Shown: positions 12,905-64,000, numbered from the stretch's first letter. The stretch is 64,000 bases of DNA from Burkholderiales bacterium (GCA_025350145.1 JANXYH010000129.1:3573-67572); one strand, 5' to 3'. Made by a program: numbers and translations. The notes: generated by a model not told the origin, from the letters alone.

Positions 12905-12921
12905 GCACGGGAGCCAAGACC

Positions 12922-30555: not shown

Positions 30556-31563
30556 ATGGCCACCTTTGATTCTGACCCCGTGCTGCAAGCTGCCAAGCAA
30601 ACCGTCTGGGCCGCGCTGGCGCGACTGCCCGGCCCGGCATTGGACTCCGGCTGCGCCGAACTGCTCGCGCCCGATGTGGCCTGGCATGTCGGCCACCCGA
30701 TCGAGGTGCTGCATGGCCCGCAGGCCGTGGCCGAGAACTTCTTTGCGCCACTGACCCGCGCGTTTCCTGACATCGAGCGCCGCACCGACCTGTTCTTCGC
30801 CGGGCATTGGGATGGCCGGCTGGACGGTGGCGGCGGCTGTTGGGTCAGTTGCAGCGGCCACTACCTGGGCAACTTCCGCGCCGATTGGCTGGGCATCGCC
30901 GCCAGTGGCGAGCCGGCCGCGCTGCGTTTTGGCGAGTTCTACCGCGTCGTCGATGGCCGGATCGCCGAGGCGCGGGTGCTGCTCGACATCGTTGACCTGG
31001 CCCGCCAGACCGGGCGGCGAATTCTTCCGCCGAGTTCGGGGCTGGAATTGCTGGTGCCCGGGCCGCGCGGCCACGACGGCCTGCTGCGCGACGGCCGCGA
31101 TGCGCAAGAGGGCGCGGCCAGTCTGGCCCTGGTCGAATCGATGATCGGTGGCCTGATGCGCTATGACCAGGCCAACTTGAAAAGCATGGGAATGCGCGCG
31201 CATTGGCATGAAGAGATGATGTGGTACGGCCCCGGTGGCATCGGCACCTCGCGCGGGCTGGGCGGCTTTGAGCGCCACCACCAACGGCCATTTCTGCATG
31301 CCTTTCCCGACCGCAAGGGCGGCAACCACCGCGCCCGCATTGCCGAGGGCGCGTTCGTCGCCTCGACCGGCTGGCCCAGCGTGCGCGCCACCCACGGCGG
31401 CGACTACCTCGGCGTGCCGGCCAGCCAGGCCGCGATCCAGATGCGGGTGATGGACTGGTGGCGCTGCGCCGACGGGCTGCTGACCGAGAACTGGGTGCTG
31501 ATCGATCTGCCACATCTGATGTTGCAGATGGGGGTAGACCTGCTCGCCCGCCTGCGCGACTGA
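30556..31563 (+). CDS. tandem SnoaL-like / ester-cyclase protein (paralogue-like of 28274..29239)
   Basis: About 335 aa from ATG 30556. Two NTF2-like halves (ENFFAPL...F..I..R and WHEEMMWYGPGGIG...). Confidence 0.6.
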   Translation: MATFDSDPVLQAAKQTVWAALARLPGPALDSGCAELLAPDVAWHVGHPIEVLHGPQAVAENFFAPLTRAFPDIERRTDLFFAGHWDGRLDGGGGCWVSCSGHYLGNFRADWLGIAASGEPAALRFGEFYRVVDGRIAEARVLLDIVDLARQTGRRILPPSSGLELLVPGPRGHDGLLRDGRDAQEGAASLALVESMIGGLMRYDQANLKSMGMRAHWHEEMMWYGPGGIGTSRGLGGFERHHQRPFLHAFPDRKGGNHRARIAEGAFVASTGWPSVRATHGGDYLGVPASQAAIQMRVMDWWRCADGLLTENWVLIDLPHLMLQMGVDLLARLRD

Positions 31564-39294: not shown

Positions 39295-40593
<1,299 letters not shown>

Positions 40594-40807
40594 GGTGATG
40601 GTCCTTGTGGGGGTTGACGGAATCGGGGTGTCATGGCCCGCGGCGGGCTGCCCTGAAGGCACCGTCGCGATGGCCCAAGCGTACTTCGAATCGCCAGGGC
40701 CGCAGGACTTATGTCTTATAGAAGATTGAAAAATAAGTCTCACAAAATCAACAGTTTAAGCAATATTTACCATGATGCGAAATCAAATTTCCCGTCATGA
40801 GAAATTG

Positions 40808-49147: not shown

Positions 49148-49280
49148 GGTGACCACGCGCCAAGCGCCTTCGCCGCGCGCCCCCGGGCAGCGCGGCGTGG
49201 CGCAAGGTGGACTTGGACTTGAAGTTGAAGTCGCTTTGTCAACGAAGCGGTGTCGTACCACGAGTTCGTGCAGGCGCAGC

Positions 49281-50131
49281 TCAAAGACGCCGTCCACAAC
49301 GTACCGGCCTGGCTGGTCTGTCAAGTCCCGCCTGGTTGTAGACGAGTGCCACCGCGCGTGCCGTAATTTGGCTGCGATGCATGTCCTGCGTCGTAAAGCC
49401 GCCCCAGCGCCCCCACGTGCCAATATGACCTGCGTCACCTACCCCCGAGAGATCAGTGAGCAAAGAGGTAGGTATGTCGAACAGCCAACGATCTGAGGTC
49501 CAGATGCACGCAGTGAAGGCTTTGTCCGAGCCTGGCGCATCGCAAGGAGCCCGCAGGGCGACTGAAGATGCGCCAGGATCGGCGCCATCGTCTCTGCCGC
49601 CTGGCGGCAGCTGCGAGGTGGTGCCGCGCGCTCGGCGCCGCACGTTCCGCACGGCCGGTTCAGCGAGTCGCGAACGCTGGTCATCAGCGATTGGCGCATC
49701 CAGTGTTCGCTCGGAGCCAATTCCATGGCCTTCAATGCGCGGCGCACCGAGTCTTCGCTGACCACGCTGTGCATTCCCAATGCCTGCGCCGCTACCGCGT
49801 CGCCGCGAATGCCGGCAATGTGTGCGTAGCGCTTGCTGCCCGACAGAATGCCCAGCATTAACCTGCCCAGCACGTCGCGCTTGCTGCTCGCATTGGGGCT
49901 GCTGTACTGCAACGGGCATTCCTCGACCCAGCGATCGAATACACCGGCAGTGGCCAGGAACTCGGCGAAGAACAAGAGCTGACCGTGCGGTGTCGCACGC
50001 GCCGTCTCGTCCCAGCGCAGGTGCATGCGACCGCCCATCGTCTGCACCACCAGCGCCTCTTCGCCGGCCAGCGCCAGCGCCGTCTTCGACGGCTGTTTGC
50101 CTTCACCCATCCGGTGAGTGCGCCCGGTCAA
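49281..50131 (-). mobile_element. decayed DDE transposase (N- and C-terminal fragments in different frames, catalytic core deleted)
   Basis: ORF 49439..50131 carries a transposase-like N-terminus (GQLLFFAEFLATAGVFDRW..., KRYAHIAGIRGD, VVSEDSVRRALK). A second frame (49281..) carries WLFDIPT... joined directly to GRWGGFTTQDMHRSQITARAVALVYN. The IS family is not resolved and no terminal inverted repeats were identified. Confidence 0.6.
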
Positions 50132-50217
50132 CGTAACCGCCCGCCGGCGTTGAGAAAACCGGCTTCGGTGGCGAGACAGCTGCCGGTTCTAGGCTAAAGC
50201 CTTCGACCGTTGCGCGC

Positions 50218-50913
50218 TTACGCCGAAACAGTCGCGGCATCCTCGGCCGCAGCTGGCGCTTCGCTGCGCAGCCGGTTGATCATGATCGCGGCCGCCTGCG
50301 TGATGTGTTGGCGCGCCAGCGCTTCGGCCGATGCGCCGTCGCCCGCCATCACCGCATTGAGCATCGCCTCGTGCTGGTCCCAGAGGTCGCGCGGCAGTTC
50401 GTCGCGCATCAACACCTCACCCATCACGCGCTGGGTGTAGGTCCACTGCGCTTCCATCGTGGGTGCGATCAGCGGGTTCTCCGACAGCCTGTAGACAAGG
50501 TCGTGGAACTTGAGATCGGCGGCGATCATCGCCGCGACCGAGCCGCCGGCGACCGCTTTGCGCCCACTCTGGATCAGCGCCGGGCCCTGCTTCTTCGCCC
50601 GTTCGGCGTTGCGTTCGGCGGCCTTGCGGAACGCCAGGCCTTCCATCACCGCGCGAACCTCGTATATGTTGCCAACTTGGTCCAGGTCGAGCGGCGCGAC
50701 GATCAGCCCCCGCCCCGGCGCGTCACGCAGCACACCCTGGGTGCGCAGCAGCAGCAGCGCCTGCTGCACCGGCTGGCGCGACACGCCCAGCAGCTGCGCG
50801 ATCTGCTCCTGGATGATGCGTTCGCCGGGCCTGAGCTTGCCGGCCGAGATCTCCGAGACGATGGCTTCGTGGACCTGCTCCACGAGCTTGGGCTGGGTGG
50901 CGATCACTCTCAT
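50218..50913 (-). CDS. GntR-family (FadR/FCD subfamily) transcriptional regulator
   Basis: 231 aa. It has a winged HTH (GERIIQEQIAQLLGVSRQPVQQAL..L...G) and an FCD-like helical C-domain. Confidence 0.9.
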   Translation of the reverse strand: MRVIATQPKLVEQVHEAIVSEISAGKLRPGERIIQEQIAQLLGVSRQPVQQALLLLRTQGVLRDAPGRGLIVAPLDLDQVGNIYEVRAVMEGLAFRKAAERNAERAKKQGPALIQSGRKAVAGGSVAAMIAADLKFHDLVYRLSENPLIAPTMEAQWTYTQRVMGEVLMRDELPRDLWDQHEAMLNAVMAGDGASAEALARQHITQAAAIMINRLRSEAPAAAEDAATVSA

Positions 50914-50935
50914 GCGTCGAGTATAGGTTGCAGCC

Positions 50936-50944
50936 GAATTCAGA
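50936..50944. promoter_or_regulatory. TCTGAATTC motif copy (reverse orientation) upstream of the GntR gene
   Basis: gaattcaga lies within ccgaattcagaatcc, in the 42-nt gap between the kinase-like gene and the GntR gene. Confidence 0.45.
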
Positions 50945-50955
50945 ATCCAGTCGCT

Positions 50956-51981
50956 TCAATGTGCGAGCACGGACCCCGTCACCTGGCGCCAACCGGCCTC
51001 GGCCATCGGGCGCGCCAGCCGGCCGGTCTGTTCTGCCTCGGCGCTGGCGGCGCTGCCGTGCAGCGCGCGATGCAGGATGCCTTGCAGGATCGCCGTCATG
51101 CGGAACATGTTGAAGGCCATGTAGTAGTCCCAGTCGGGCAGCGACTCGCGCCCGCTGCGCTTGCAGTAGGCCTGCACGTAGGCGTCTTCGCGCGGGATGC
51201 CCAGCGCCGCCAGGTCGTGCCCCTTGAGGCCGCGAAATTCCGCTGGCGTCACACGCCAGGTCAAGCAGTGGTAGGCGAAGTCGGCCAGCGGGTGGCCCAG
51301 CGTCGACAGCTCCCAGTCCAGCACCGCCAGCACATGCGGCTCTTGCGGATGGAAGATCAGGTTGTCGATCCTGAAATCGCCGTGCACGAGCGCGCTCTCG
51401 TCGTCTTCGGGCAAGTGCGCCGGCAGCCACTCGATCAGTCGCTCCATCGCTGCGATGGGCTCCGTCTGGCTGGCGCGGTACTGCTTGGTCCAGCGCTCGA
51501 TCTGGCGCTTCAGGTACTGGCCCGGTCGGCCAAAAGCCGACAGCCCGGCGGCGTGATGATCGACGCCATGCAGCGCCGCGATGACGCGGTTCATCTCGTC
51601 GTAGATCGCGCCACGCTGTTCGTGCGTCATGCCGGGCAGCGATGGGTCCACGAAGTTGCGACCGTCGACATGCTCCATCACGTAGAAGGCGCTGCCGATG
51701 ACAGCGGCGTCTTCGCACAGCAGATACACACGCGGCACCGGCACCGCGCTGTGGGCCAGCGCGGCCATCACGCGGTATTCGCGGTCGACGGCGTGTGCGG
51801 ACGGCAGCAGCACACCCGGCGGCTTGCGCCTGAGCACCCGACGCTGGCCACCGGCCTGCAGCAGATAGGTCGGGTTCGACTGGCCGCCGCTGAACTGCTG
51901 GACGGTGAGTTCCCCGCTGAATCCGGGCAGGTGTTGGCGCAGGTGGGCGGCCAGCGAATCGAGCGCGAACGGATGCCTCAT
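50956..51981 (-). CDS. APH-like phosphotransferase (LvaA / ACAD10-11 kinase-domain-like)
   Basis: 341 aa from ATG 51981. It has the Brenner motif HGDFRIDNLIF and DWELS, plus a GQSNPTY N-lobe. Its ATG overlaps the phaC stop. Confidence 0.85.
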   Translation of the reverse strand: MRHPFALDSLAAHLRQHLPGFSGELTVQQFSGGQSNPTYLLQAGGQRRVLRRKPPGVLLPSAHAVDREYRVMAALAHSAVPVPRVYLLCEDAAVIGSAFYVMEHVDGRNFVDPSLPGMTHEQRGAIYDEMNRVIAALHGVDHHAAGLSAFGRPGQYLKRQIERWTKQYRASQTEPIAAMERLIEWLPAHLPEDDESALVHGDFRIDNLIFHPQEPHVLAVLDWELSTLGHPLADFAYHCLTWRVTPAEFRGLKGHDLAALGIPREDAYVQAYCKRSGRESLPDWDYYMAFNMFRMTAILQGILHRALHGSAASAEAEQTGRLARPMAEAGWRQVTGSVLAH

Positions 51982-53120
51982 CGTGGGGGTCTCTTCCTGG
52001 GTTGGTTGCGGGCTTCCAGCCAGTCGGCGATGCCAGGCGCCAGCACCGCCTGCGCCTTGCCGCCGACAAAGGTGCCGATGTGGCCGCCGGGCACCGACAG
52101 TTCGGCGTAGTCGGTGGTGCCGAAGTGCGCACCCTGGCCGCGCGAGCAGGCGGTCGGGATCACGACATCGCCGTCGGCCGAGACGTTCAGCACCGGCATC
52201 GTCAACTGCCGCAGGTCGACAGTGCGGCCGCCAAGCACGAACGCGTTGCGGACCAGCTTGTTGTCCTGGTACAGATCCTTGAACCACTGGCGCACGAACT
52301 CCCCCGGCGTGTCGGGGCGGTCGCCGATCCAGCGCTCCATGCGCAGGAAGTTCAGCAGCTTGGCGTCGTCGTCCAGTACGTCGACCAGGCCGAGCGTGTA
52401 CTTGGCCAGGTTGCCCACCGGGTTCATCATCAGGAAGCTGTGGCCCACCGACGGCCCCGAGGCATTGCCCATCGAATCGACCAGTGCGTCGATGTCGTCG
52501 CCATCCAGCGCACGCGCCCAACGGTTCATGTAGCCGCCGGCCGCCTCGGGCGCGGCCTTGTCGCCGTGGAAGTCGATGGGCGTGACCGTCAGCACCAGGT
52601 TGCGCACCTTCTCCGGGTGCAGCGCGGCGTGGCACAGGGACAGCACACCGCCCTGGCAGACGCCGATCAGGTTGATGCTGTCCACCGCCTCGCGTTCGCG
52701 AATCACGTCGACGCAACTGTCCAGGTAGCCGTTGACGTAGTCGTCGATCGTCAGCCACCGGTGGCGGCGCTGCGGCTCACCCCAATCGACCATGTAGACG
52801 TGCAGCCCGCGCGCCAGCAGCTTGCGCACGAAGGAGCGCTCGGCTTCGAGGTCGATCATCTGGTAGCGGCCGACCAGCGCGTAGGCGATGAGCACGATGG
52901 TCGGCGGCCCGGCCGGCTGCGTTGCCTGCGGCGCGGGGCGGTAGTGGTACAGGCGCACCATGTCTTCGCGCCAGACCTCGTCCTTGGGTGCGGTGGCGAT
53001 GGCCAGTTCGCTGTCGCTGAAGCGGGCGATGCGCTGCGCGCCGTTGGCGATCTTCTGCTGTGCCTCGCTCAGCTCGCGCAACAGTGTCAGCGGCTGGATG
53101 TCGATGGGCCTGCGGTTCAT
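51978..53120 (-). CDS. phaC: class III poly(R)-hydroxyalkanoate synthase catalytic subunit PhaC
   Basis: 380 aa from ATG 53120. It has the lipase-box-like GVCQGG with the catalytic Cys. VDWGEP, TIDDYVNGYLDSCVD, HPEKVRNLV, FLRMERWIGDRPDTPGEFVRQWFKDLYQDN and GGHIGTFVGGKAQ match the class III pattern I recall from Allochromatium PhaC. Confidence 0.88.
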   Translation of the reverse strand: MNRRPIDIQPLTLLRELSEAQQKIANGAQRIARFSDSELAIATAPKDEVWREDMVRLYHYRPAPQATQPAGPPTIVLIAYALVGRYQMIDLEAERSFVRKLLARGLHVYMVDWGEPQRRHRWLTIDDYVNGYLDSCVDVIREREAVDSINLIGVCQGGVLSLCHAALHPEKVRNLVLTVTPIDFHGDKAAPEAAGGYMNRWARALDGDDIDALVDSMGNASGPSVGHSFLMMNPVGNLAKYTLGLVDVLDDDAKLLNFLRMERWIGDRPDTPGEFVRQWFKDLYQDNKLVRNAFVLGGRTVDLRQLTMPVLNVSADGDVVIPTACSRGQGAHFGTTDYAELSVPGGHIGTFVGGKAQAVLAPGIADWLEARNQPRKRPPR

Positions 53121-53650
53121 GGTCGGCTCCCGGCCGTGCGCGCATGCGCCGCCCGCTTCAGCTCGCGCACCTCGCGCTTGAGCTGCTGGATTTCGCGGAA
53201 GGTCTCGTCGACCTCGACCCGCGTCGGTTGGCCGAGCGCCTCTGCACTCAGCGTCGACAGCTTCTGCCAGCCGCTGCGCCGATGCGACGTGGCGCGCACG
53301 CTGGCGGCGGTGGCAGCCAGGCCGGGCTCGGAGAGCATCGCCGCGTGCATCGCGCCATCGAACTCGCCCAGGCCCATGCGCAGCAAGGCCGTCGGCGAGT
53401 TGATCGTCTGGCCGTCGCCGCGCAAACGGTCCAGGCGCTGCGTGAGGCGGTTCATGCCGTCGACGGCGCCAGCCGCGACGACGCCTGCGACCTGCGCGTT
53501 GGCGATCACCTCGCCGAGCTGCGCGGTCGCGAGTTCGCACCAGGTCTGCAAGGCATCGCGCGCCGGGCGCAGGCCAAAGGCATCGGCCAGCGGGCCGTAG
53601 ACGCGCTCGGCCGCGGCGATCCACGGGAAGTCATAGGCGATCGAAGTCAT
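53117..53650 (-). CDS. small coiled-coil protein in the PhaE/PhaR position (possible synthase partner subunit)
   Basis: 177 aa from ATG 53650. It is translationally coupled on both sides. The C-terminus VDETFREIQQLKREVRELKR resembles the PhaE C-terminal heptads, but it is much shorter than canonical PhaE. Confidence 0.5.
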   Translation of the reverse strand: MTSIAYDFPWIAAAERVYGPLADAFGLRPARDALQTWCELATAQLGEVIANAQVAGVVAAGAVDGMNRLTQRLDRLRGDGQTINSPTALLRMGLGEFDGAMHAAMLSEPGLAATAASVRATSHRRSGWQKLSTLSAEALGQPTRVEVDETFREIQQLKREVRELKRAAHARTAGSRP

Positions 53651-54419
53651 AGCGTGCTCACCAGGTGGCCACCGTCGGCCGCGATGACGCTGCCGGTGAT
53701 GTAGGCGCCGGCGTCCGACGCCAGCAACAGCAACGCGCCATCCAGATCGGCAGCGCGGCCGAAGCGGCGCTGCGGAATGCGCGCCATCAGCCGCTGCCCG
53801 GCGTCCGAGGCCAGGAAGTCGTGGTTCAACTCGGTCTCCACATAACCCGGCGCGAGCGCGTTGACGCGGATGCCATGGCGCGCGAGTTCGAGCGCCATGG
53901 CGCGCGTGAGATGGATCAGCCCGGCCTTGGACGCGCAATACGGCGCCACGCCGCCGGCCACACGTTCGCCGGTGATCGACGCGATGTTGACGATGGCGCC
54001 CGGGCGCTGCGCAGCGACCAGGCGGCGCGCGCCTTCCTGCGCCACCAGCCAGGCGCCCTTGAGGTTGGTGTCGAGGACGTCGTCCCAGTCGGCCTCGCTT
54101 TGTTCGAACAGTGGCCGCGAGACGGCCACGCCGGCGTTGTTGACGATCAGGTCGGCCGGGCCCTGCTTGGCTTCGATCGCGTCGAACGCAGCACGCACGC
54201 TCGCCGCGTCGGTGACATCCATTGCGACCGCGAAGGCGCGGCCGCCGACGGCTTCGATCTCGGCCACGGTGGCGGCCAGTTTGTCGGCGCGGCGCGCGGC
54301 AACGACCACCGTCGCGCCGGCACCTGCCAGCGTCAGCGCGAAGTGGCGGCCGAGGCCACTGGAGGCGCCGGTCACCAGCGCTGTGCGGCCGCCCAGGCCA
54401 AAGGCCGGTGGCAAGGTGT

Positions 54420-54423
<4 letters not shown>
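53647..54423 (-). CDS. short-chain dehydrogenase/reductase (LvaD-like position)
   Basis: 258 aa from GTG 54423. Motifs TGASSGLG, NNAG and YCASKAG. Confidence 0.9.
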
Positions 54424-55603
<1,180 letters not shown>

Positions 55604-55604
<1 letters not shown>

Positions 55605-57349
55605 CAGCTTTCGCGCCCACCGTCGCGCCACTTGCGCTCGGCGTCGTCCCACGCGCCGAGTGCCTGCAGATCGGGCACCCAGGCCAGGCCCGACTTCGCA
55701 TCCGAGGAGGCCGCTTCGGGCGTCACCAGCACGTCCAGCAGCGCCGGGCCACCGCTGGCGATCACCGCGAGCGCACGGTCGATCGCCGCCGCCAGATCCT
55801 CGGCGCGCTCGACACGTTCGCCGTGCAGGCCGAAAGCGCGCGCCATCGCGGCATGGTCGGCGAACTGCAGCCGTGTGCCGACGACCTTGCCGTGGGTTTC
55901 CTGCTGGTCGCGCACCTCGATCGCCCAGCTGCCGTTGTTGGCCACGACGATCAGCACCGGCGCCTTGTGGCGCGCCGCAGTGTCGATCTCCATCGCGTTG
56001 AAGCCGAATGAGCCGTCGCCGGTGAGGACGGCCACGGTGCGGCCCGGCAGCGCCAAGCTGGCCGCGATACCGAAAGGCGTGCCAATACCGATGCAGCCCA
56101 GCGAGCCCGGGTCCAGGTAGGTGGTGGCCGGCAGACCGACGCGCGCGAAGCTCAGAAAGTCGCCACCGTCAGCGACGATCACTGCGTCGCGCGGCAGCTT
56201 CTCGCGCAGCGCGGCGAGCAGCTTGTTCGGATGCATCAGGCCGTCGCTGCCGGGCTGCGCCGCGTTCATCGACGCCAGCAGCTTGCCGGCGCGTTCCAGG
56301 TGCTTGGCACGCACGCCGCGCGCCCACTCGGTGTCGGTGGCGGGCGCACGGTCGGCGGCGGCCGCGAGGATGGCTTCGAGCGTTTCGCCGACCGTCGCCA
56401 GGATCTCGACAGCGCCGCGCCGGTTGTCGCGCAGCTCGGACGCGCAGTCCGCGATGCGCAACAGCTTGGCGTCACCGAACACCGCCGGCGAGCCGTAAGC
56501 GAGCTGGAAGTCGAGCCGGCGGCCGACGGTGATCACGAGGTCGGCCTGACTCATCACCGAGCCGCGCATCGCGGCGACGACAGACGGATGTTCATCGGGC
56601 ACCAGACCGCGGCTCTCGCCGGTGTCGAGGTAGAGCGCACCGAGCTGATCGAGCAGTTTGTTCAGAGGGGCCGCAGCACCCCGCGCGCCGCGGCCGGAGA
56701 TGAACAGCGGGCGCTTCGCAGACCAGAGCAAGTCGACGGCGGCCTTCACGGCGTCGCGGTCGGGCAGCAGACGTGCGGGCGGCCTGGCCATCAGTTGCTC
56801 GGACAGCTGCAGCGCGCGCGGCACCTCGGCGCGCAGCGTGTCGACCGGGAAGTCCAGGTACACCGGCCCCGGCTCGCCGCCCTGGCCGAAGGCGCGCGAC
56901 ACCGCTTCGTCCAACTCCTGCAGCACGAGCGAAGGCTCGCGCACCGTGCGTGCGTAGCGCGTCAGCGAGCGCACGAAGTCGGTATGCACCATGTCCTGCA
57001 AGGCGCCTCGGTTTTCCTGCGCCCGCGGCGGCGTGCCCGAGAGCACCAGCACCGGCGCCCGTGACACGTGCGCGTTGGCGATGCCGGTCATGGCGTTGGT
57101 GACGCCGGGGCCGGCAGTCACCATCGCGACGCCGAGCCCACCGGTCAGTTCGGCATGCGCATGCGCCATGTAGACCGCAGCGCGTTCGTCGCGCACGTCG
57201 ACGATGCGGATGCCCTCGGCGTCCAGGCGCATCCACATCGGCATGATGTGGCCGCCGCAGAGCGCGAACACGCGGTCGACGCCACGCGCCTTGAGGAAGC
57301 GCGCGATCAGTGCGGCGGCGGAGTTCTCGGTGATGGTCGGATTGGTCAT
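55604..57349 (-). CDS. thiamine-diphosphate enzyme (acetolactate synthase / 2-hydroxyacyl-CoA lyase-oxalyl-CoA decarboxylase-like)
   Basis: 581 aa from ATG 57349. It has the ThDP N-domain (GGHIMPMW, GPGVTN) and the ThDP-binding motif GDGSFGFN...NNG. Confidence 0.9.
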
Positions 57350-57357
57350 GATGAGTC

Positions 57358-59238
57358 TCACAGGAAGCCGGTGGAAATCCAGGGTACGGCGGCGACGACC
57401 GCCAGCCCGACGAGCAGTGCGACCACGTAGCCGACGATGGGCTTCATGCCCTCCGACGGGTCGACACGGCCCACTGCACAAGCAGCGTAGTAACCCACGC
57501 CGAAGGGCGGCGCGAACAGGCCCACGCCCATGGCGAGCACGACGACCATCGCGTAGTGCACCTCGTGCACGCCGATCTGGCGCGCGATGGGGAACAGCAA
57601 CGGCCCGAACAGCACGATGGCCGGGATGCCTTCGAGCACGCTGCCCAGGATCACGAAGGCGATGATGGACACTGCGAGAAAGCCGAACTTGCCGCCCGGC
57701 AGCGCGGCCATCGCGGCGGCCAGCGTGTTCGAGAAGCCCGACTGCGTCAGCGCCCAGGCCATGCCGGTGGCGGTGCCGATGATGAACAGGATGGCGCCCG
57801 TCAGTGCCGCGGTTTCGACCAGCATCGGCACCATCCGTCGCCACTGCATCTGGCGGTAGAAGACAACGCCGCAGATCAGCGCGTAGGCGATGCCCAGCGT
57901 CGACACCTCGGTGGCGGTAGCCACGCCTTCGACGACCGCGGCGCGGATCACGAAAGGCAGCAGCACGGCCGGCAGCGCAACGGCGAGAGCGCGGACGATC
58001 TGCGCGCCGGTCGCCTTGCGCACCTGCGACAGGTCTTCCTCGCGGTAGCGGAACCACACCACCACGCACAGCGTCGCGGCCAGCACCAGGCCAGGCAGCA
58101 TGCCGCCGGTGAACAGCGCCGCGATCGAGACGCCGGTCACCGAGCCGATGGTGATGAGCACCAGGCTGGGCGGAATGGTTTCGGTCTGCGCGCCGGCGGT
58201 GGCCAGCAGCGCGACCAGGTCACCGTCCTTCGCGCCACGCTTGCGCATCTCTGGGAACAGCACGGGCGCGACCGCGGCCATGTCGGCGACCTTTGAGCCC
58301 GAGATGCCCGAGACGAGGTACATCGCACCCAGCAGCACATACGACAGGCCACCGCGCACATGGCCGAGCAGGCTGGCCAGGAAGGCGACCATCGCACGCG
58401 CCATGCCGGTCATCTCGATCAAGAGACCGAGGAAGACGAACAGCGGCACGGCCAGCAGGATGATGTGCGACATGCCCTCGTCCATGCGCCCGACCATCAC
58501 CGTGATGGGCAGCGAGGTCGTCAGCGCCAGGAAGCCGAAGGTCGCCAGGCCGAAGGCCACCGCGATGGGCACGCCGATCAGCACCAGCGTCGCGGTCAGG
58601 CCGACGAAGAAGATCAACAGGTTGGTATTGCCCAGGCCTTTGAAGACAGGGCCGAGCGCATAAAAGGCGACGCTGACGAGTGCGACGCTGCCGAGTGCGC
58701 TCGCGACCCGCCGCCAGTCGCCCACCTTCAGCAGGCGGATCACGGCCATCACCGCCATCAGGACCAGGCCCGCCGGCAGCGCCGAAGCGCGCCAGGCGTT
58801 GGAGATCTCGAGCGACGGTGACGTGACGATGGCCTCGTCGGCGGCAAACTCGTACGCCGGCCAGACGATCAGCAACAGGAAGGCCAGTGCGGCCGCGATG
58901 GCCACCGTGTCGAGCCAGGCGCGCAGTCCCGGCGAGGCCTTCGAGACCAGCGCCGTCATGCGCATGTGCTCGCCTCGGCGCAGCGCGACCACGGCGCCCA
59001 GGCTGGCCAGCCACAGGAACAGCAGCGACGCCGCTTCGTCGGTCCACACCAGCGGCGTGTGCAGGAAGTAGCGCGCGATCACGCCGGCCAGCAGGATGCC
59101 GATCTCGGCGGCAATCAGCACCGCAGCGATCATCTCCACGCCGGTGCCGAGCAGCGTCTCCAGCTTCCTGGCAACACGCGTGCTGCGGCGCGTGTCGTCG
59201 GCCGACGCATCCGCCGGCGGGGTGATCGACAGTTCCAT
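57358..59238 (-). CDS. TRAP transporter fused small/large permease (DctQ-DctM)
   Basis: 626 aa. An N-terminal DctQ-like 4-TM region is followed by a DctM-like polytopic domain. Confidence 0.9.
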   Translation of the reverse strand: MELSITPPADASADDTRRSTRVARKLETLLGTGVEMIAAVLIAAEIGILLAGVIARYFLHTPLVWTDEAASLLFLWLASLGAVVALRRGEHMRMTALVSKASPGLRAWLDTVAIAAALAFLLLIVWPAYEFAADEAIVTSPSLEISNAWRASALPAGLVLMAVMAVIRLLKVGDWRRVASALGSVALVSVAFYALGPVFKGLGNTNLLIFFVGLTATLVLIGVPIAVAFGLATFGFLALTTSLPITVMVGRMDEGMSHIILLAVPLFVFLGLLIEMTGMARAMVAFLASLLGHVRGGLSYVLLGAMYLVSGISGSKVADMAAVAPVLFPEMRKRGAKDGDLVALLATAGAQTETIPPSLVLITIGSVTGVSIAALFTGGMLPGLVLAATLCVVVWFRYREEDLSQVRKATGAQIVRALAVALPAVLLPFVIRAAVVEGVATATEVSTLGIAYALICGVVFYRQMQWRRMVPMLVETAALTGAILFIIGTATGMAWALTQSGFSNTLAAAMAALPGGKFGFLAVSIIAFVILGSVLEGIPAIVLFGPLLFPIARQIGVHEVHYAMVVVLAMGVGLFAPPFGVGYYAACAVGRVDPSEGMKPIVGYVVALLVGLAVVAAVPWISTGFL

Positions 59239-59248
59239 GGTGGCCTCG

Positions 59249-60283
59249 TCAGGCGACGTCGGCGTATTGCGTCAGCAGGCCCCAGGCGTCCTTGTCGAAG
59301 CGCTCCTTGGCCTGCGCGTAGAAGCCGGCGTTGCGCAGCGCCTGGCGGAACGGCGCGGTGTCGACCTTGTTGAACTTCAGGCCCTTGCCTTCCAGCGCCT
59401 TCTGCAGGTCGAGATTGGCGAGTGCGATGTCGTCACGCTGCTTCTTCGCCGCCGCGTTGACGTGCTTGGCGATTACTTGTTGCACGTCGGCCGGCACGCC
59501 CTTCCAGACCTTGCCGCTGGCGATGAACCAGAAGCCGTCCCAGGCGTGGTTGGTCAGCGAGCAGAACTTCTGCACCTCGAAGAACTTGGCGGTGTCGATC
59601 AGCGCCAGCGGGTTCTCCTGGCCGTCGGCGACCTTGGTCTGCAGCGCCTGGTAGGCCTCGGACAGCGGCAGGCTCACCGGCGCCGCGCCGAGGGCCTTGA
59701 ACATCGAGACCCACAGCGGCACCACCGGCACGCGGATCTTGAAGTTCTTCAGGTCGTCGGGCGTGACGATGGGTTTGGTGCTGGTCGTGATCTGGCGGAA
59801 GCCGTTGTCCCAAACGGTCTCCAACGGCACCAGGCCGACCTTCTCGATCTGGCCGCGTACGTGCTTGCCGATCGCGCCGTCCATCGCGGCCCAGACCTTG
59901 TCGTAGCTGGGGAAAGCGAAGCCGACGCCGGTGATCGAGGTCACCGGCACCAGCGTGGACATCACCGTGCCGGGGAAGGTGGCGAGCTCGAGTGCGCCCG
60001 AGCGGATCTGCGACAGCATGTCGGAGTCGCTGCCGAGCTGGTTGTTCGGGAACAGCTGGATGGCCACCTTGCCCTTGGTCTCGGCAGCGATGGCGTCAAT
60101 CGCTTCCTTCAGCCGGAGGTTCACCGAGTGTGTCACCGGCAGGTCGGTGCCGAGCTTGAACTTGAAGTCGGGCGTGCCCTGGGCGTGGGCAAACTGGGTC
60201 GCGAAGCCGGTCGCGAGCGCCGTGCCGGCGAGCGTGCCGGTGCTGGTGCCGAGGAAGTGTCTGCGGGTGATGAGGCTGGTCAT
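59249..60283 (-). CDS. TRAP transporter substrate-binding protein (DctP family) with Tat-type signal
   Basis: 344 aa from ATG 60283 with AGGAGA upstream. The N-terminus is MTSLITRRHFLGTSTG. Confidence 0.9.
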   Translation of the reverse strand: MTSLITRRHFLGTSTGTLAGTALATGFATQFAHAQGTPDFKFKLGTDLPVTHSVNLRLKEAIDAIAAETKGKVAIQLFPNNQLGSDSDMLSQIRSGALELATFPGTVMSTLVPVTSITGVGFAFPSYDKVWAAMDGAIGKHVRGQIEKVGLVPLETVWDNGFRQITTSTKPIVTPDDLKNFKIRVPVVPLWVSMFKALGAAPVSLPLSEAYQALQTKVADGQENPLALIDTAKFFEVQKFCSLTNHAWDGFWFIASGKVWKGVPADVQQVIAKHVNAAAKKQRDDIALANLDLQKALEGKGLKFNKVDTAPFRQALRNAGFYAQAKERFDKDAWGLLTQYADVA

Positions 60284-60314
60284 GCTTGTCTCCTGGGTGT
60301 GTCGGTCTTTGATC

Positions 60315-60323
60315 TCTGAATTC
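60315..60323. promoter_or_regulatory. TCTGAATTC motif copy 1 in the divergent promoter
   Basis: Read directly from the sequence. Confidence 0.45.
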
Positions 60324-60346
60324 AAAAAGGCCGAGTGCTATCGTAT

Positions 60347-60362
60347 TCTGAATTCCGAGTTC
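60347..60362. promoter_or_regulatory. TCTGAATTCcGAGTTC motif copy 2
   Basis: Read directly from the sequence. It shares 15/16 nt with copy 3. Confidence 0.5.
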
Positions 60363-60399
60363 GTCAAGCTCGCCCGAATCCGGATTTACCCTAATGGCA

Positions 60400-60416
60400 C
60401 TCTGAATTCAGAGTTC
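60400..60416. promoter_or_regulatory. motif copy 3 including the perfect palindrome CTCTGAATTCAGAG
   Basis: Read directly from the sequence, about 40 nt upstream of the acyl-CoA synthetase ATG. Confidence 0.5.
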
Positions 60417-60453
60417 CATAATGAAAGTCGTTCCGTAATCTTCAGGAGACCCC

Positions 60454-62016
60454 ATGAGCCACCTGCTCACCGTGTCGGACGCGATCGCGTCGCACGCCCG
60501 CCTGCAGCCGACGAAGATCGGCACCCGCGATTCGAAGCGCAGCCTGAGCTTCGCCGACTGGGACCAGCGCGCCGGCCGGCTGTCGAGCAGCCTGCTCGGC
60601 TTGGGACTCGTGAAGGGCGACCGTGTCGTGCTGCTGGCCTACAACTGCGTCGAATGGATGGAGATCTACGTCGCACTGGCGCGCGCCGGCCTGGTCGCGG
60701 TGCCGGTCAACTTCCGCCTGCTGGCAGCGGAGATCGCCTACATCGCCGCACACAGCGAAGCGCGCGCAGTCATCGTCCAGGACGACCTGCGAGACCGCGT
60801 CGAAACGCTGCGCGCCGATTCACCGATTGCCGCCAACTGCTGGATCCACTTCGGCGCCGCCACGCCGGCCGGCTGGCAGGGTTACGAAGACCTGATCGGC
60901 CGCGCGCCGGCCGGCACGCCGGCGCTCGAAGTGAAGCCGCAGGACCCGTTCGCGCTGATGTACACCTCGGGCACCACCGGGCGGCCCAAGGGCGCGATCC
61001 GCAATCACGAAGGCAACGCGCTGCTGGCGCTGGCGACGGCGCTCGAGTTCGGCTTCTCGCGCGACGACACCGGCCTGCTGGTGATGCCGATGTGCCATGC
61101 GAACTCGCTCTACTTCGGCCTCACCTTCATGTACCTGGGCGCGACCATCGTCGTCGACGACCGCAAGAGCTTCGACCCCGAAGGCCTGCTCGAAACACTG
61201 GCGCGCGACAAGGTCACCTTCACCTCGCTGGTGCCGACGCACTACATCATGATGCTGGCCCTGCCCGATGCGGTGAAGGCGCGTTATGACGTCAGCGCAG
61301 TGGACAAGCTGCTGATCTCGTCGGCACCGGCCCGCAAGGACACCAAGCTTGCGATCCTGTCGCACTTCGCCAATTCGCGTCTGTTCGAGCTCTACGGGGC
61401 CACCGAGACCGGCTGGGTCACGCTGTTGCGGCCCGAGCAGCAGATCGACAGGCTCGGCTCGGTCGGGCGCGAATGGGCCGGCTCGGGCGCGATCCGGATC
61501 CTGGACCCCGAAGGCAGGGAAGTGGCAGACGGCGAGGTCGGCGAGTTGTTCTCGCGGACTTCGTACGTATTCGACGGCTACTGGAAGAGCCCTGAGAAGA
61601 CCGCCGAGGCCTTTCGCGGCGAATGGTGTTCGGTCGGCGACATGGCGCGGCGCGATGCCGATGGCTATATCCACCTGGTCGACCGCAAGAGCAACATGAT
61701 CATCAGCGGCGGCGAAAACATCTACCCGTCCGAGGTCGAAGGCGTGCTCGGCGCCTTCCCCAAGGTCAAGGACGTCGCTGTGATCGGCGTTCCCGATGCC
61801 AAGTGGGGCGAGGCGGTGATGGCGGTGGTGGTGCTGCACGACGGCCAGCAGGCCACCGAGGCCGAGTTGCAGGACTGGTGCCGCGAGCGCGTGGCCGGCT
61901 ACAAGCGGCCGCGCAGCATCGTCTTCATCGCCGACGCCGAGATGCCGCGCACCGCCACCGGCAAGATCCTGCACCGCACGCTGCGCGAGCGCGTCGTCAG
62001 CACCGCCACGCATTGA
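60454..62016 (+). CDS. AMP-dependent acyl-CoA synthetase/ligase (LvaE-like position)
   Basis: 520 aa with AGGAGA as RBS. The AMP-binding motif is YTSGTTGRPKG. It also has GWV...GD and a C-terminal TATGKI. Confidence 0.92.
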   Translation: MSHLLTVSDAIASHARLQPTKIGTRDSKRSLSFADWDQRAGRLSSSLLGLGLVKGDRVVLLAYNCVEWMEIYVALARAGLVAVPVNFRLLAAEIAYIAAHSEARAVIVQDDLRDRVETLRADSPIAANCWIHFGAATPAGWQGYEDLIGRAPAGTPALEVKPQDPFALMYTSGTTGRPKGAIRNHEGNALLALATALEFGFSRDDTGLLVMPMCHANSLYFGLTFMYLGATIVVDDRKSFDPEGLLETLARDKVTFTSLVPTHYIMMLALPDAVKARYDVSAVDKLLISSAPARKDTKLAILSHFANSRLFELYGATETGWVTLLRPEQQIDRLGSVGREWAGSGAIRILDPEGREVADGEVGELFSRTSYVFDGYWKSPEKTAEAFRGEWCSVGDMARRDADGYIHLVDRKSNMIISGGENIYPSEVEGVLGAFPKVKDVAVIGVPDAKWGEAVMAVVVLHDGQQATEAELQDWCRERVAGYKRPRSIVFIADAEMPRTATGKILHRTLRERVVSTATH

Positions 62017-62040: not shown

Positions 62041-63000
62041 ATGCAGCAGTTCCTGCTCGTCACCGTTCCGTTCTTCGCACTGGTGCTGTGTGGCTGGCTA
62101 GTCGCGCGCGTGCGATTGCTGCCGCTGGAGGCGATCCCAGGGCTAAACGCCTTCGTGCTGTCCTTCGCCCTGCCCTGCATGCTGTACCGCTTCGCGGCCA
62201 CGACGCCGATCCTGCTTCTGCTCGACCCGACGGTATCGACGGTTTATCTGCTGTGCGCGCTGCTGATGGTGGCGCTGACGATCGTCACCACGCGCCGCGG
62301 TGCCATCGGCTGGAACGACGCGTCATTCGGCGCTCTCGTCGCGGCGTTTCCGAACTCGGGCTTCATGGGCGTGCCGCTGTTGGTCGCGCTGCTGGGCCAG
62401 GCCGCAGCGGGCCCGGCCATCGTCGCGCTGGCGATCGACATGGTGGTGACCTCGTCGCTGTGCATTGCGCTGTCGCGCCTGGACGGCGCCAGCGAGCACG
62501 GCGTGTCGCGCGCCGTCGGCAACGCGTTGAAGGGCATGCTGAGAAACCCGCTGCCGTGGTCGATCGGGCTCGGCTGCCTCACCGCCGCCACCGGATTCCA
62601 GCTCTGGGAGCCGGTGCGCAACACCGTCGGCATGCTGGCCGACGGCGCATCGCCGGTGGCGCTGTTCACGATCGGCGCGGTGCTTGCACGGCCGCAGCCG
62701 GTGGTGGAGACGACTGCCGGGCGCGGTCTCGGCGACGTGCCGCTGGTCGTGTTCTTCAAGCTCATCGTCCACCCGGCGCTGGTGCTCGGCATCGGCAAGC
62801 TGGCGCAGGCCGCCGGCGTGCCGCTGAGCGGCTTTGCGCTGAGCGTGCTCGTGCTCATCGCGGCGCTGCCCAGCGCCAGCAGCATTCCGATGCTCGCCGA
62901 ACGCTACAGTGCCGACGTCGGCCGCGTCGCGCGTATCGTGCTGTTCGCCACGGCCGTCTCCTTCGTCACGTTCTCCGCAGTGGTCGCGCTGCTGGTCTGA
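62041..63000 (+). CDS. AEC-family (auxin efflux carrier-like) transporter
   Basis: 319 aa with about 10 TM segments and a typical N-terminus (PFFALVLCGW...). Confidence 0.85.
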   Translation: MQQFLLVTVPFFALVLCGWLVARVRLLPLEAIPGLNAFVLSFALPCMLYRFAATTPILLLLDPTVSTVYLLCALLMVALTIVTTRRGAIGWNDASFGALVAAFPNSGFMGVPLLVALLGQAAAGPAIVALAIDMVVTSSLCIALSRLDGASEHGVSRAVGNALKGMLRNPLPWSIGLGCLTAATGFQLWEPVRNTVGMLADGASPVALFTIGAVLARPQPVVETTAGRGLGDVPLVVFFKLIVHPALVLGIGKLAQAAGVPLSGFALSVLVLIAALPSASSIPMLAERYSADVGRVARIVLFATAVSFVTFSAVVALLV

Positions 63001-63013
63001 AGAACACTTCGCC

Positions 63014-64000
63014 ATGACACAGCCTGCCGGGACGCCCACGCCCTACTCGCTGCACGTTGAAGACCACGTGCTCGACGACCTGCGCCGACGCCTGGCGCAC
63101 ACCCGCTGGCCCGACGAGCCGCCCGGCCCGGCGTGGTCCACCGGCAGCAGCGTCGCTTACATGAAGGCCTTGACCGAACACTGGCGCAGCGGGTTCGACT
63201 GGCGCGCCCATGAGGCCGCACTCAACGGCTTGCGCCAGTTCACCGTGCCGCTCGCCGGCATCGACCTGCATTTCATCCACGAGCCGGGCCGCGGGCCGGC
63301 GCCGATGCCGCTGCTGCTGTCGCACGGCTGGCCGGGCTCGGTATTCGAGTTCCGCCGCCTGATTCCGCTGCTCACCGACCCCGCGCGCTTCGGCGGCGAC
63401 CCGGCGGACGCGTTCAGCGTCGTCGCGCCGTCGCTGCCGGGCTTCACGCTGTCGTTCAAGCCGGGACAACCGCGCTTCGGCGCCGAGGAGATGGCCGATG
63501 CCTTCGCCACGCTGATGACCGACGTGCTCGGCTACCCGCGCTTCGTGGCGCAAGGCGGCGACTGGGGCTCGTTCATCAGCTCGCGTCTGGGCTACAGCCA
63601 CCCCGAACGCGTGATCGGCATCCACCTGAACCTGCTGGCCGTGCCGCGCGATCCGAAGGGGCTGAAGAACCCCACGGCCGAGCAGCGACGCTACCTGAAC
63701 GAACTGAGCCACTTCCTGAAGGAGGAGACGGGCTACCAGGCGATCCAGGGCACCAAGCCGCAGACACTGGCCTTCGCGCTGACCGATTCACCCGCCGGCC
63801 TGGCGGCCTGGATCGTCGAGAAGTTTCGCAGCTGGACCGACAACGACGGCGACCCGGCCAGTGCGGTGCCGCTCGACGAGATGCTCGCCAACATTACGCT
63901 CTACTGGGCCACAGGCGCCGTGGGTTCGTCGTTCTGGCCCTACTACGCGCGCATGCACCGGGAGTGGCCGGTTCCCGCGGGCAAGACGGTGGACGTGCCG
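63014..64000 (+). CDS. epoxide hydrolase (microsomal-type N-domain + alpha/beta hydrolase), 3'-truncated by the window end
   Basis: It is not in the ORF track because it has no stop in the window. Manual translation from ATG 63014 gives MTQPAGTPTPYSLHVEDHVLDDLRRRLAHTRWPD...IDLHFIHE...LLLSHGWPGSVFEF...GGDWGS. Confidence 0.85.
   Translation, partial: MTQPAGTPTPYSLHVEDHVLDDLRRRLAHTRWPDEPPGPAWSTGSSVAYMKALTEHWRSGFDWRAHEAALNGLRQFTVPLAGIDLHFIHEPGRGPAPMPLLLSHGWPGSVFEFRRLIPLLTDPARFGGDPADAFSVVAPSLPGFTLSFKPGQPRFGAEEMADAFATLMTDVLGYPRFVAQGGDWGSFISSRLGYSHPERVIGIHLNLLAVPRDPKGLKNPTAEQRRYLNELSHFLKEETGYQAIQGTKPQTLAFALTDSPAGLAAWIVEKFRSWTDNDGDPASAVPLDEMLANITLYWATGAVGSSFWPYYARMHREWPVPAGKTVDVP

Follow-up and report, generated by a model that had tools for sequence, protein, structure and literature searches.

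A class III-like polyhydroxyalkanoate synthase within a putative oxo/hydroxy acid operon of a Burkholderiales bacterium

In a 64,000-nucleotide stretch of DNA from a Burkholderiales bacterium (GCA_025350145.1, JANXYH010000129.1:3573-67572; the whole stretch is hereafter called the window), we found a two-subunit, class III-like polyhydroxyalkanoate (PHA) synthase, PhaE-PhaC, set among genes for the uptake and conversion of organic acids. Nine minus-strand genes ran head to tail from 50218 to 60283 and encoded, besides the synthase, a tripartite ATP-independent periplasmic (TRAP) importer, a thiamine diphosphate (ThDP)-dependent 2-hydroxyacyl-CoA lyase, an acyl-CoA dehydrogenase (ACAD)-fold enzyme, a short-chain dehydrogenase/reductase (SDR), a kinase and a GntR/FCD regulator, while genes for an acyl-CoA ligase and an auxin efflux carrier (AEC)-type transporter were transcribed divergently from this string. 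The enzymes are familiar, and their combination is undescribed, conserved and functionally suggestive. We put even weight on the reading that these genes form one GntR/FCD regulon of two divergent units, in which a short oxo or hydroxy acid would be taken up and processed in the form of CoA thioesters, with a hydroxyacyl-CoA at the branch point. The arrangement points to a natural, so far undescribed route to bioplastic that would start from unusual oxo/hydroxy acids and, in relatives, perhaps from ring-cleaved aromatics.

Operon structure and control regions

The window has a G+C content of ca. 68%, and mechanical open reading frame (ORF) lists were therefore full of shadow frames. Genes were picked by third-position G+C, which yielded one coherent gene set between 50.2 and 63.0 kb, and were then translated; Pfam and NCBIfam supported the family of every operon gene. 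In the direction of transcription, the minus-strand string encoded the TRAP solute-binding protein DctP (59249-60283, 344 aa; Pfam DctP 240 bits, TIGR00787 226 bits), a fused DctQ-DctM TRAP membrane component (57358-59238, 626 aa; Pfam DctQ 98 bits and DctM 340 bits), a 2-hydroxyacyl-CoA lyase of the actinobacterial (AcHACL) type (55604-57349, 581 aa; NF058623 and PDB 7PT1), an atypical ACAD-fold enzyme with ACAD10/11/LvaC hallmarks (54420-55604, 394 aa; three ACAD Pfam domains and the motifs given below), a classical, NADP(H)-type SDR with a GTG start (53647-54423, 258 aa; adh_short 198 bits), a short PhaE-like subunit (53117-53650, 177 aa), the class III-like catalytic subunit PhaC (51978-53120, 380 aa), an APH/protein-kinase-like (PKL) phosphotransferase predicted to be a 4-hydroxyacyl-CoA kinase (50956-51981, 341 aa; Pfam APH 194 bits) and the GntR/FCD regulator (50218-50913, 231 aa; Pfam GntR 46 bits and FCD 84 bits). 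On the plus strand, the AMP-forming acyl-CoA ligase (60454-62016, 520 aa; Pfam AMP-binding 260 bits, and AMP-binding_C) was followed after 24 nt by the AEC/Mem_trans membrane transporter (62041-63000, 319 aa; Pfam PF03547 90 bits).

Spacings within the nine-gene string were 10, 8, -1, -4, -4, -4, -4 and 42 nt, with phaE overlapping phaC by 4 nt, and this pattern is the signature expected of a translationally coupled operon. The 4-nt overlaps, together with the synteny of the synthase module in ca. 45 genomes and ca. seven arrangements, ruled out a chance juxtaposition of the genes. Metagenome contigs with an identical PhaC, in which the genes had been called independently, gave the same lengths for the SDR (258 aa), PhaE (177 aa) and PhaC (380 aa). 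The first-pass annotation of this DNA had described nine head-to-tail minus-strand genes and a divergent ligase, and third-position G+C, translation and profiles bore out every particular of that description; all the genes that it listed were found, but its inventory had left out the AEC/Mem_trans transporter.

The divergent control region (60284-60453, 170 nt) contained three sites of the 9-mer TCTGAATTC, at 60315-60323, at 60347-60355 and, as a palindrome, at 60401-60412, and a further copy lay on the minus strand at 50936-50944, in the 42-nt gap upstream of gntR. The 9-mer is part of a perfect palindrome, ACTCTGAATTCAGAGT. By chance, 0.11 copies would be expected in the window; the five that occur all lie within the operon's two control regions. 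It was kept in equivalent positions of L001/L002, L007, L008 and L011/L060 (labels L001 to L060 denote loci with a related PhaC), at 3878-3944 in L001, 2200-2208 in L007, 2185-2196 in L008, and 1152-1160, 18539-18547 and 20347-20358 in L011; the copies in L007 and L008 stood at the same place as the one before gntR in the window. Orthologues of gntR (83-89% identity) closed the operon in L001, L007, L008 and L009. The motif TCTGAATTC/ACTCTGAATTCAGAGT is probably the operator of the GntR/FCD protein, and so read, it would unite gntR itself and the two transcription units, ligase-AEC and the nine-gene string, in one regulon. Two weak sigma-70-like sites faced outward from the divergent region in a consensus promoter scan, and a terminator scan was uninformative, with five terminator-like sites against 5.2 expected.

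The synthase and its recurrence in other genomes

The Cys-Asp-His triad of PhaC was checked by alignment. C155 (in GVCQGG), D318 and H347 were invariant in an alignment of 17 sequences (A1) and, when class I PhaC structures were aligned, fell on their Cys, Asp and His. Relatives at 65-74% identity are named class III PhaC by NCBI, and the window protein scored 351.0 bits against the class III model TIGR01836, below its cut-off of 365.3. PhaE reached 44.1 bits against PF09712 (cut-off 25.7), a match that covered only profile positions 172-311 of 311, i.e., the C-terminal 140, and 36.6 bits against TIGR01834 (cut-off 154.95). The short form was kept at 73-84% identity in the closest relatives (L001, L006 and L009), and PhaE was 290-340 aa long in other clades. 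The description of a complete class III PHA synthase between the SDR and the kinase therefore stood for the PhaC triad and for the position of the genes, but not for completeness, as PhaE is short and PhaC falls under the class III cut-off. By its triad and its PhaE partner, PhaE-PhaC is class III-like and lies at the edge of the curated family, with a predicted polymerase activity.

No phasin or depolymerase gene was found anywhere in the window, and the neighbours examined for PHA genes over 30-50 kb were not PHA-related. These absences, the short PhaE and the PhaC score under the family cut-off would fit a role of PhaE-PhaC as a CoA-releasing safety valve or acyltransferase (by oligomerisation, lactonisation or thioester cleavage) that prevents slow hydroxyacyl-CoAs from trapping CoA. 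In mammals, CoA trapping by 4-hydroxy- and 4-phosphopentanoyl-CoA is known. We nevertheless consider such a role very unlikely, as the full polymerase triad was strictly conserved and a phasin gene lay 3 kb from the module in L005; polymerisation would free CoA too, so that the two ideas are compatible.

A database search with PhaC returned ca. 2,500 relatives, the closest of which came from Burkholderiales and Rhodocyclaceae metagenomes. One genome per species was scanned with the PhaC alignment, giving 52 loci, in which Rubrivivax and Burkholderiales metagenome-assembled genomes were the closest named relatives. The window proteins and further neighbours were mapped onto these loci by tblastn, precomputed annotations were read for six of them, and module counts were made on the 45 non-redundant loci with usable flanks. 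This survey of how often phaEC is embedded among such genes showed that the module recurred in the 45 loci, mostly fed by a PcaHG-type set (protocatechuate 3,4-dioxygenase with a carboxymuconolactone decarboxylase (CMD)-like gene), which was present in 25. PhaE was encoded in 44 of the 45, an orthologous SDR (58-94% identity, in nearly every case the gene immediately before phaE) in 38, a ligase in 34, a kinase in 28 and an ACAD in 27, with kinase and ACAD together in 24. The lyase served as feeder in 14 loci and never shared a locus with PcaHG. Four loci (L027, L029, L042 and L050) had the ligase, the SDR and PhaEC with no kinase or ACAD within 10 kb. The SDR and the ligase are the constant partners of PhaEC, and the kinase and the ACAD are frequent yet dispensable.

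The loci fell into ca. seven arrangements. The window type (TRAP, lyase, ACAD, SDR, PhaE, PhaC, kinase, GntR) was shared by L006 and L009, and L001/L002, the closest long relatives (87% PhaC identity), had the same operon without the ACAD but with the kinase kept. A Casimicrobiaceae type combined a TetR gene with the string ligase, CMD-like, PcaH, PcaG, ACAD, kinase, DUF6285, SDR, PhaE and PhaC, with gaps of -4 to 34 nt, and a reduced Casimicrobiaceae type was without kinase or ACAD. In the Variovorax/Piscinibacter type, an IclR gene accompanied QuiC-like, MFS, PcaH, PcaG, CMD-like, ligase, SDR, PhaE, PhaC, ACAD and kinase genes. The Rhodocyclaceae/Zoogloeaceae type, to which the phasin-bearing L005 belongs, comprised a pyrroloquinoline quinone (PQQ) alcohol dehydrogenase, an aldehyde dehydrogenase, the lyase, a PBP, ACAD, kinase, DUF6285, SDR, PhaE and PhaC, and a minimal type (L003/L010) held only a transporter, a ligase, the lyase, PhaE and PhaC. 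None of the six annotated loci contained an enoyl-CoA hydratase, thiolase or PhaJ gene. The synthase clade occurred mainly in genomes of Burkholderiales, Rhodocyclaceae/Zoogloeaceae and Casimicrobiaceae, groups of bacteria that normally use class I synthases.

In the PcaHG loci, PcaH and PcaG scored above the cut-offs of the protocatechuate 3,4-dioxygenase equivalogs. For the CMD-like proteins, no NCBIfam model was matched, and they are therefore not canonical PcaC. The set was found at 2060-11137 of L059, at 1004-13350 of L058 and in ca. 23 more loci, namely L012, L014-L017, L020, L022, L024-L030, L032-L035, L038, L039, L041, L042, L047, L050 and L052. A PRK08162-type ligase lay in the same tight string, and a dehydroshikimate dehydratase gene and shikimate/quinate genes were often adjacent. 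Neither of the two annotated PcaHG loci (L058 and L059) contained pcaB, pcaD, pcaIJ or pcaF. These loci suggest an undescribed fate of ring-cleaved protocatechuate, tied to polyester synthesis. Numbered from its distal carboxyl group, 3-oxoadipate counts as a 4-oxo acid, and its decarboxylation yields levulinate; in the PcaHG loci, 3-oxoadipate would supply the 4-oxo acid. Several cultured Variovorax species hold the PcaHG version of the module; cultured carriers are Variovorax gracilis J22R24, V. humicola KACC 18501, V. flavidus, V. rhizosphaerae, V. robiniae and V. brevis.

Partner enzymes and the predicted route

Whether kinase and ACAD belong to the lva and ACAD10/11 group was judged from ACAD11 structures, hallmark residues and published identities. 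The kinase scored 449 bits against an orphan structure, PDB 3DXP, and 314 bits, at 46% identity, against the kinase domain of mouse ACAD11 (8V3V). Its loop HGDFRIDN aligned with the ACAD11 loop that holds the catalytic D220 and N225, with Asp and Asn kept, and the DWE motif was kept as well. The fold and catalytic residues are those of an LvaA-type APH/PKL kinase, and activity on 4-hydroxyacyl-CoA is predicted. ACAD10/11 are reported to be only 29% identical to Pseudomonas putida LvaA, and Burkholderia orthologues of the kinase/ACAD type, which are nearer to the mammalian enzymes, replace ACAD10 domains in vitro (PMC11342911). Many loci carried a second kinase lineage, with the loop HRDYRTGN and 27% identity to the window kinase, whose gene was always followed by a small DUF6285 gene (L005, 6736-8170; L059, 6869-8328; also L020, L022, L026, L030, L033-L035, L038, L039, L041 and L047). 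The presence of two unrelated kinase lineages in the same module speaks for selection on the phosphorylation step itself. We suspect, as an unconfirmed guess, that the second-lineage kinase and DUF6285 correspond to LvaA and LvaB of P. putida.

The ACAD-fold enzyme contains R-LSPARLT-HCMR (R-x7-HCMR) and YDGPSEVH, in which Asp replaces the usual catalytic Glu, and its segments VRLSPARLTHCMRW and IYDGPSEVH aligned with GRLGPGRIHHCMRT and LADGPDEVH of ACAD11. According to Rashan et al. (PMC12440821), the upstream Arg, HCMR and the catalytic Asp occur in ACAD10/11 and LvaC alone and are required if 4-phosphoacyl-CoA is to be handled. The window enzyme thus bears the three hallmarks of an LvaC-type eliminase, and phosphate elimination is predicted for it. 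HCMR and the upstream Arg (R-x7-HCMR) were present in all 28 ACADs adjoining the PhaC clade. A match to the catalytic Asp was obtained for 24 of the 28, and pairwise alignment showed the Asp for the Rhodocyclaceae type. Identity of the window ACAD to human ACAD11 was only 36%, compared with 54% for the mycobacterial homologue 4HR3 and a reported 56-62% for LvaC (PMC11342911), and the window enzyme therefore represents a divergent branch relative to the validated members. In L001, only 30 nt separated the lyase stop from the SDR start (8667-8698), where the window has its ACAD gene (54420-55604); a tblastn search of L001/L002 for an ACAD remnant returned none, indicating a clean absence.

No specific family cut-off was reached by the SDR, whose closest NCBIfam model was PRK06949 (277 bits, cut-off 358). 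It contains TGASSGLG, AARR after beta-2 (the Arg-Arg NADP(H) signature typical of reductases) and YCASK. Its 217 bits against the FabG model and its NADPH signature, together with the gene order SDR-PhaE-PhaC, which mirrors the logic of phaB-phaEC, would be in keeping with a module of the poly(3-hydroxybutyrate) type. A PhaB-like SDR and PhaEC would then make poly(3-hydroxybutyrate/valerate) from feeder-derived beta-ketoacyl-CoAs, and the kinase and ACAD would perform an unrelated side reaction. Both feeders could conceivably give beta-keto acids, either acetoacetate from a C5 tertiary 2-hydroxy acid via the lyase or 3-oxoadipate-derived units in PcaHG-type loci. We regard this as improbable. 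The acetoacetyl-CoA reductase model was not among the 25 NCBIfam SDR matches listed, no thiolase was encoded, and the kinase and HCMR ACAD stood in tightly coupled strings in 24 of the 45 loci, with two kinase lineages recruited independently, which would be unexpected for a bystander.

Two further observations were made on SDR orthologues. Those of Rhodocyclaceae/Zoogloeaceae loci (L018, L021 and L051) had Asp-Leu-Arg, an NAD-type sequence, after beta-2, whereas nearly all other loci had Arg-Arg; the cofactor or the physiological direction may thus differ in that clade. The SDR of L005 gave no GxxxGxG match in a regular-expression scan.

The ThDP enzyme scored 806.8 bits against the NCBIfam equivalog NF058623 (cut-off 600) and 606 bits against PDB 7PT1 over residues 10-577 of 581, the C-terminal lid included, while other 2-hydroxyacyl-CoA lyases and oxalyl-CoA decarboxylases reached at most 249 bits. 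These profile scores place it in the AcHACL family with equivalog rank, in agreement with the lyase-like role, one of two that the first-pass annotation had considered. Positions aligned with L127/Q128 and I492/E493 were kept (GALQD over GPLQD and WAIE over WNIE). L127, I492, the catalytic Glu E493 and the extended lid are the AcHACL features that limit 2-hydroxyacyl substrates to C5 or shorter, e.g., 2-hydroxyisobutyryl (PMC8760513). Tertiary 2-hydroxy dicarboxylates of C6 or longer, such as 2-hydroxy-2-methylglutarate (giving levulinate) and homocitrate (giving 3-oxoadipate), were considered as substrates and set aside, as every C5-or-shorter determinant was kept. One possibility within the size limit is a C5 2-hydroxy dicarboxylate that would be cleaved to a 3- or 4-oxo acid and then re-activated. 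Another, by analogy with mammalian peroxisomes, is that the lyase would serve as a parallel outlet for 2-hydroxyacyl-CoAs unusable by beta-oxidation.

AcHACL is reversible (PMC8760513), and the lyase could in principle condense formyl-CoA with an aldehyde or ketone, with PhaEC polymerising the 2-hydroxyacyl-CoA as a natural poly(2-hydroxyalkanoate) system. The minimal loci L003/L010, reduced to transporter, ligase, ThDP enzyme, PhaE and PhaC, would suit such a system, and PQQ alcohol dehydrogenase genes, which could supply the aldehyde, neighboured several ThDP-type loci. We see only a slight chance of this, as 31 of the 45 clade loci lacked the lyase and kept the SDR and PhaEC, no formyl-CoA source was encoded, and tertiary 2-hydroxyacyl units would be poor nucleophiles for chain growth. 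We also know of no natural PHA synthase dedicated to 2-hydroxyacyl-CoA. As separate observations on L060 (= L011), genes of a proton-translocating transhydrogenase (PNT alpha/beta) lay inside the module beside the ACAD (12640-16759), and the lyase gene seemed to be split into pieces of 202 and 127 aa and is probably a pseudogene.

The best NCBIfam match of the ligase, whose gene shares the region of the operator motif, was PRK06187 (453 bits, cut-off 476). Its orthologues (64-89% identity) were found in the loci with a ThDP homologue L001, L011, L043 and L049 and in the upstream-truncated loci L031, L054 and L056; the ligases of related loci belonged to at least three different subfamilies. 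The AEC transporter occupied the same position beside the ligase in L001/L002 (80% identity) and was present in the L011 locus (88%). All parts of a predicted TRAP transporter, DctP and the fused DctQ/DctM, were present. DctP has a twin-arginine-like signal (RRHFLG) and scored 405 bits against PDB 4OAN, with the next structure at 146 bits. The ligand in 4OAN is reportedly (S)-2-acetolactate, which is a tertiary 2-hydroxy acid of small size. The literature (one review) confirmed 2-acetolactate only as a class of TRAP ligand.

In the route that we propose, the GntR/FCD protein would act as repressor of the regulon, the TRAP system, possibly with the AEC carrier, would bring the acid in, and the ligase would form the acyl-CoA. 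The AcHACL-type lyase would split a 2-hydroxyacyl-CoA of C5 or shorter, probably tertiary, into formyl-CoA and a carbonyl compound, as a feeder or a side branch. The NADPH-type SDR would reduce an oxoacyl-CoA to a hydroxyacyl-CoA in an LvaD-like step, and the product would most economically be a 4-hydroxyacyl-CoA, because the kinase and ACAD are, as far as known, specific for 4-hydroxyacyl- and 4-phosphoacyl-CoA. At this branch point, the hydroxyacyl-CoA would have two fates. It could be polymerised by PhaE-PhaC, with CoA freed and carbon stored, or the kinase could phosphorylate its 4-hydroxyl group, after which elimination of the phosphate by the HCMR/Asp ACAD would yield a 2-enoyl-CoA and, through partial hydration, 3-hydroxyacyl-CoA; this product would enter beta-oxidation and may also feed 3-hydroxy monomers. 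The predicted product would be a short-chain polyester with 4-hydroxy and/or 3-hydroxy units. The core of ligase, NADPH-type SDR and PhaE-PhaC would form a self-sufficient route from oxo acid to polyester by activation, reduction and polymerisation.

Which thioester is polymerised was weighed on the survey. As the SDR and the ligase were constant and the kinase and ACAD dispensable, a 4-hydroxyacyl-CoA made by the SDR is at least as likely a monomer as a 3-hydroxyacyl-CoA, and it is the simplest one, because no hydratase, thiolase or PhaJ gene was present in the six annotated loci. We tentatively propose, as possible, that the synthases of the PhaE-PhaC clade serve in nature specifically for non-canonical monomers, above all 4-hydroxyacyl-CoAs from the partner reductase, making poly(4-hydroxyalkanoate)-type polyesters. 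It would be fed by short 2-hydroxy or oxo acids in the window or, in most relatives, by protocatechuate cleavage, with 3-oxoadipate as the 4-oxo acid or with CMD-like decarboxylation to levulinate, and the kinase and ACAD would provide a mobilisation or exit route. In those relatives, the operon would by nature turn aromatics into bioplastic.

The alternative is a linear pathway of activation, reduction, phosphorylation and elimination/rehydration, in which only the final 3-hydroxyacyl-CoA would be polymerised, by an ordinary 3-hydroxyalkanoate synthase. The kinase and ACAD hallmarks were present, and class III synthases normally use (R)-3-hydroxyacyl-CoA, as is established. With LvaC and ACAD10/11, part of the enoyl-CoA goes on to 3-hydroxyacyl-CoA by hydration (PMC11342911), and an engineered strain with lvaEDABC and phaC gives 82 mol% 3-hydroxyvalerate (3HV) (PMC9628823). 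We find this pathway doubtful, although it has substance, as the four loci with neither kinase nor ACAD and the absence of the ACAD from L001/L002 argue against it, no (R)-specific hydratase was found in the annotated loci, the hydration product may have either configuration, and the constant neighbour of PhaE-PhaC is the SDR and not the ACAD. The direct polymerisation of a 3-hydroxyacyl-CoA suggested in the first-pass annotation was therefore upheld in so far as the kinase and ACAD hallmarks are concerned, but was weakened by the dispensability of the ACAD next to the constant SDR and ligase.

Several points weighed against the regulon with a hydroxyacyl-CoA branch point. The gene set, the coupling, the families, the hallmark residues and the conservation of the module were read from the sequence, but the pathway steps, substrate, monomer and polymer are all inferred from sequence and synteny. 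The divergence of the ACAD may mean that it acts on a different phosphorylated or otherwise activated substrate, and its absence from L001/L002, with the kinase kept, sits badly with an obligatory pairing of kinase and ACAD, unless a different ACAD takes over there. Beside the window kinase, neither a small ORF nor a homologue of DUF6285 was present, and no LvaB-like gene was found in the window. PhaE lacks the N-terminal half of its profile, PhaC scored just below the class III cut-off, and the operon contained no gene for a phasin, a depolymerase or a hydratase. The link between the lyase products and the SDR and PhaEC is unexplained by the sequence, as cleavage removes CoA, and no gene was present that would deal with the formyl-CoA. 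Lastly, the co-occurrence counts come from only ca. seven arrangement types and are therefore phylogenetically non-independent.

Known systems and neighbouring features

Among the nearest known systems is the lvaABCDE levulinate operon of P. putida (Rand et al. 2017, cited after PMC11342911 and PMC12440821). Its enzymes comprise a ligase, an SDR, a kinase of the APH type and an atypical ACAD that has a catalytic Asp and HCMR. The window has the same kinds of enzymes, for a predicted conversion of 4-oxoacyl-CoA via 4-hydroxyacyl- and 4-phosphoacyl-CoA to enoyl- and 3-hydroxyacyl-CoA. It differs from lvaABCDE by the lack of an LvaB-like gene, by its GntR/FCD regulator, and by the PHA synthase, 2-hydroxyacyl-CoA lyase and TRAP importer that are interleaved with these enzymes. 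The window kinase belongs to a lineage that is nearer to ACAD10/11 (46%) than LvaA is (29%), and the window ACAD is further from ACAD11 (36%) than LvaC is (56-62%). The lva-like enzyme set that had been proposed for this DNA was thus supported by hallmark residues of the ACAD10/11-LvaA/LvaC kind in both the kinase and the ACAD, but was qualified by the divergence of the ACAD and the lack of an LvaB-like gene. The window system likewise resembles ACAD10, ACAD11 and their Burkholderia pseudomallei orthologues (PMC12440821, PMC11342911) in the kinase loop and in the Arg, HCMR and Asp that serve the 4-phosphate. Unlike in ACAD10/11, the kinase and ACAD are separate genes with the SDR, PhaE and PhaC between them, there is no HAD domain, and the ACAD is divergent; because the two activities are unfused, the window system is not a member of ACAD10/11.

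The synthase resembles class III PhaE-PhaC in its ca. 40-kDa PhaC with a lipase-box Cys, Asp and His and in the coupled phaE directly upstream. The types of this class are those of Allochromatium vinosum and Thiocapsa pfennigii and the haloarchaeal enzymes with a ca. 20-kDa PhaE, and class III enzymes accept 4-hydroxyvaleryl-CoA. In contrast to these, the window synthase lies in a catabolic operon and not beside phaA/phaB, its PhaC is just under the TIGR01836 cut-off, and PhaE of the window clade has only the C-terminal half. The lyase, a ligase and a GntR regulator are shared with the 2-hydroxyisobutyrate lyase-HCL cluster of Actinomycetospora chiangmaiensis (PMC7176365, PMC8760513), and some relatives add alcohol and aldehyde dehydrogenases, as with mpdBC. 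Unlike that cluster, the window system is betaproteobacterial, has a TRAP importer, is coupled to the SDR, PhaEC, kinase and ACAD, has a ligase not assigned to the HCL type, and has no acetone- or formate-handling genes nearby.

Engineered Escherichia coli and P. putida with LvaE, LvaD and PhaC make poly(4-hydroxyvalerate), P(4HV), and the addition of LvaABC gives a copolymer, P(3HV-co-4HV), with 82 mol% 3HV (PMC9628823). The natural loci follow the same gene logic, and those with and without kinase and ACAD mirror both designs. In contrast to the engineered strains, which use a class I synthase, the system described here is natural, has a class III-like two-subunit enzyme and is conserved in many genomes. 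In the searchable literature, we found no account of a PhaEC that occurs naturally within an operon of the lva-like, lyase or protocatechuate kind, the sole match to the combination being an engineered E. coli strain; the supposition that no catabolism-to-polyester hybrid operon had been described agrees with this.

The usual genomic company of PHA synthases is thiolase and reductase genes belonging to central metabolism, and the opening of 4-hydroxy acids by a kinase and an ACAD has only recently been shown, in Pseudomonas and mammals. Here, a distinct clade of two-subunit synthases appeared to be hard-wired into catabolic operons with kinase/ACAD chemistry. If the proposed route is true, it would be a natural counterpart of the hand-built lvaED(ABC)+phaC strains for 4-hydroxyvalerate polyesters and a source of synthases and reductases with a possible natural fitness for 4-hydroxy monomers, which are poorly served by current enzymes. 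The PcaHG versions in cultured Variovorax would then provide a testable link from lignin-derived aromatics to polyester storage. The actinobacterial-type 2-hydroxyacyl-CoA lyase, which is of interest for one-carbon biotechnology, is now found in Betaproteobacteria with new partners.

The neighbours over 30-50 kb included an isocitrate-lyase-family protein, a glutamine-synthetase-like protein, EamA, Dus, a FAD-binding protein and parts of an ABC transporter. A protein with two SnoaL-like domains (30523-31563, plus strand), beside ABC sugar-type transporter genes, and the isocitrate-lyase-family protein (39295-40755, minus strand) were apparently unrelated to the operon. Just downstream of gntR, 49150-50200 gave a weak, mixed codon-position signal, and its longest ORF (49439-50131, minus strand) matched no Pfam family; Pfam gave no support for this ORF as a transposase remnant, and the region may be degraded sequence at the edge of the conserved block. 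On the other side, the AEC gene was followed by an epoxide hydrolase gene (EHN and alpha/beta hydrolase fold; 63011-64000, plus strand) that ran past the end of the window, and the same position in L001 was taken by a peroxiredoxin gene and a LysR gene.

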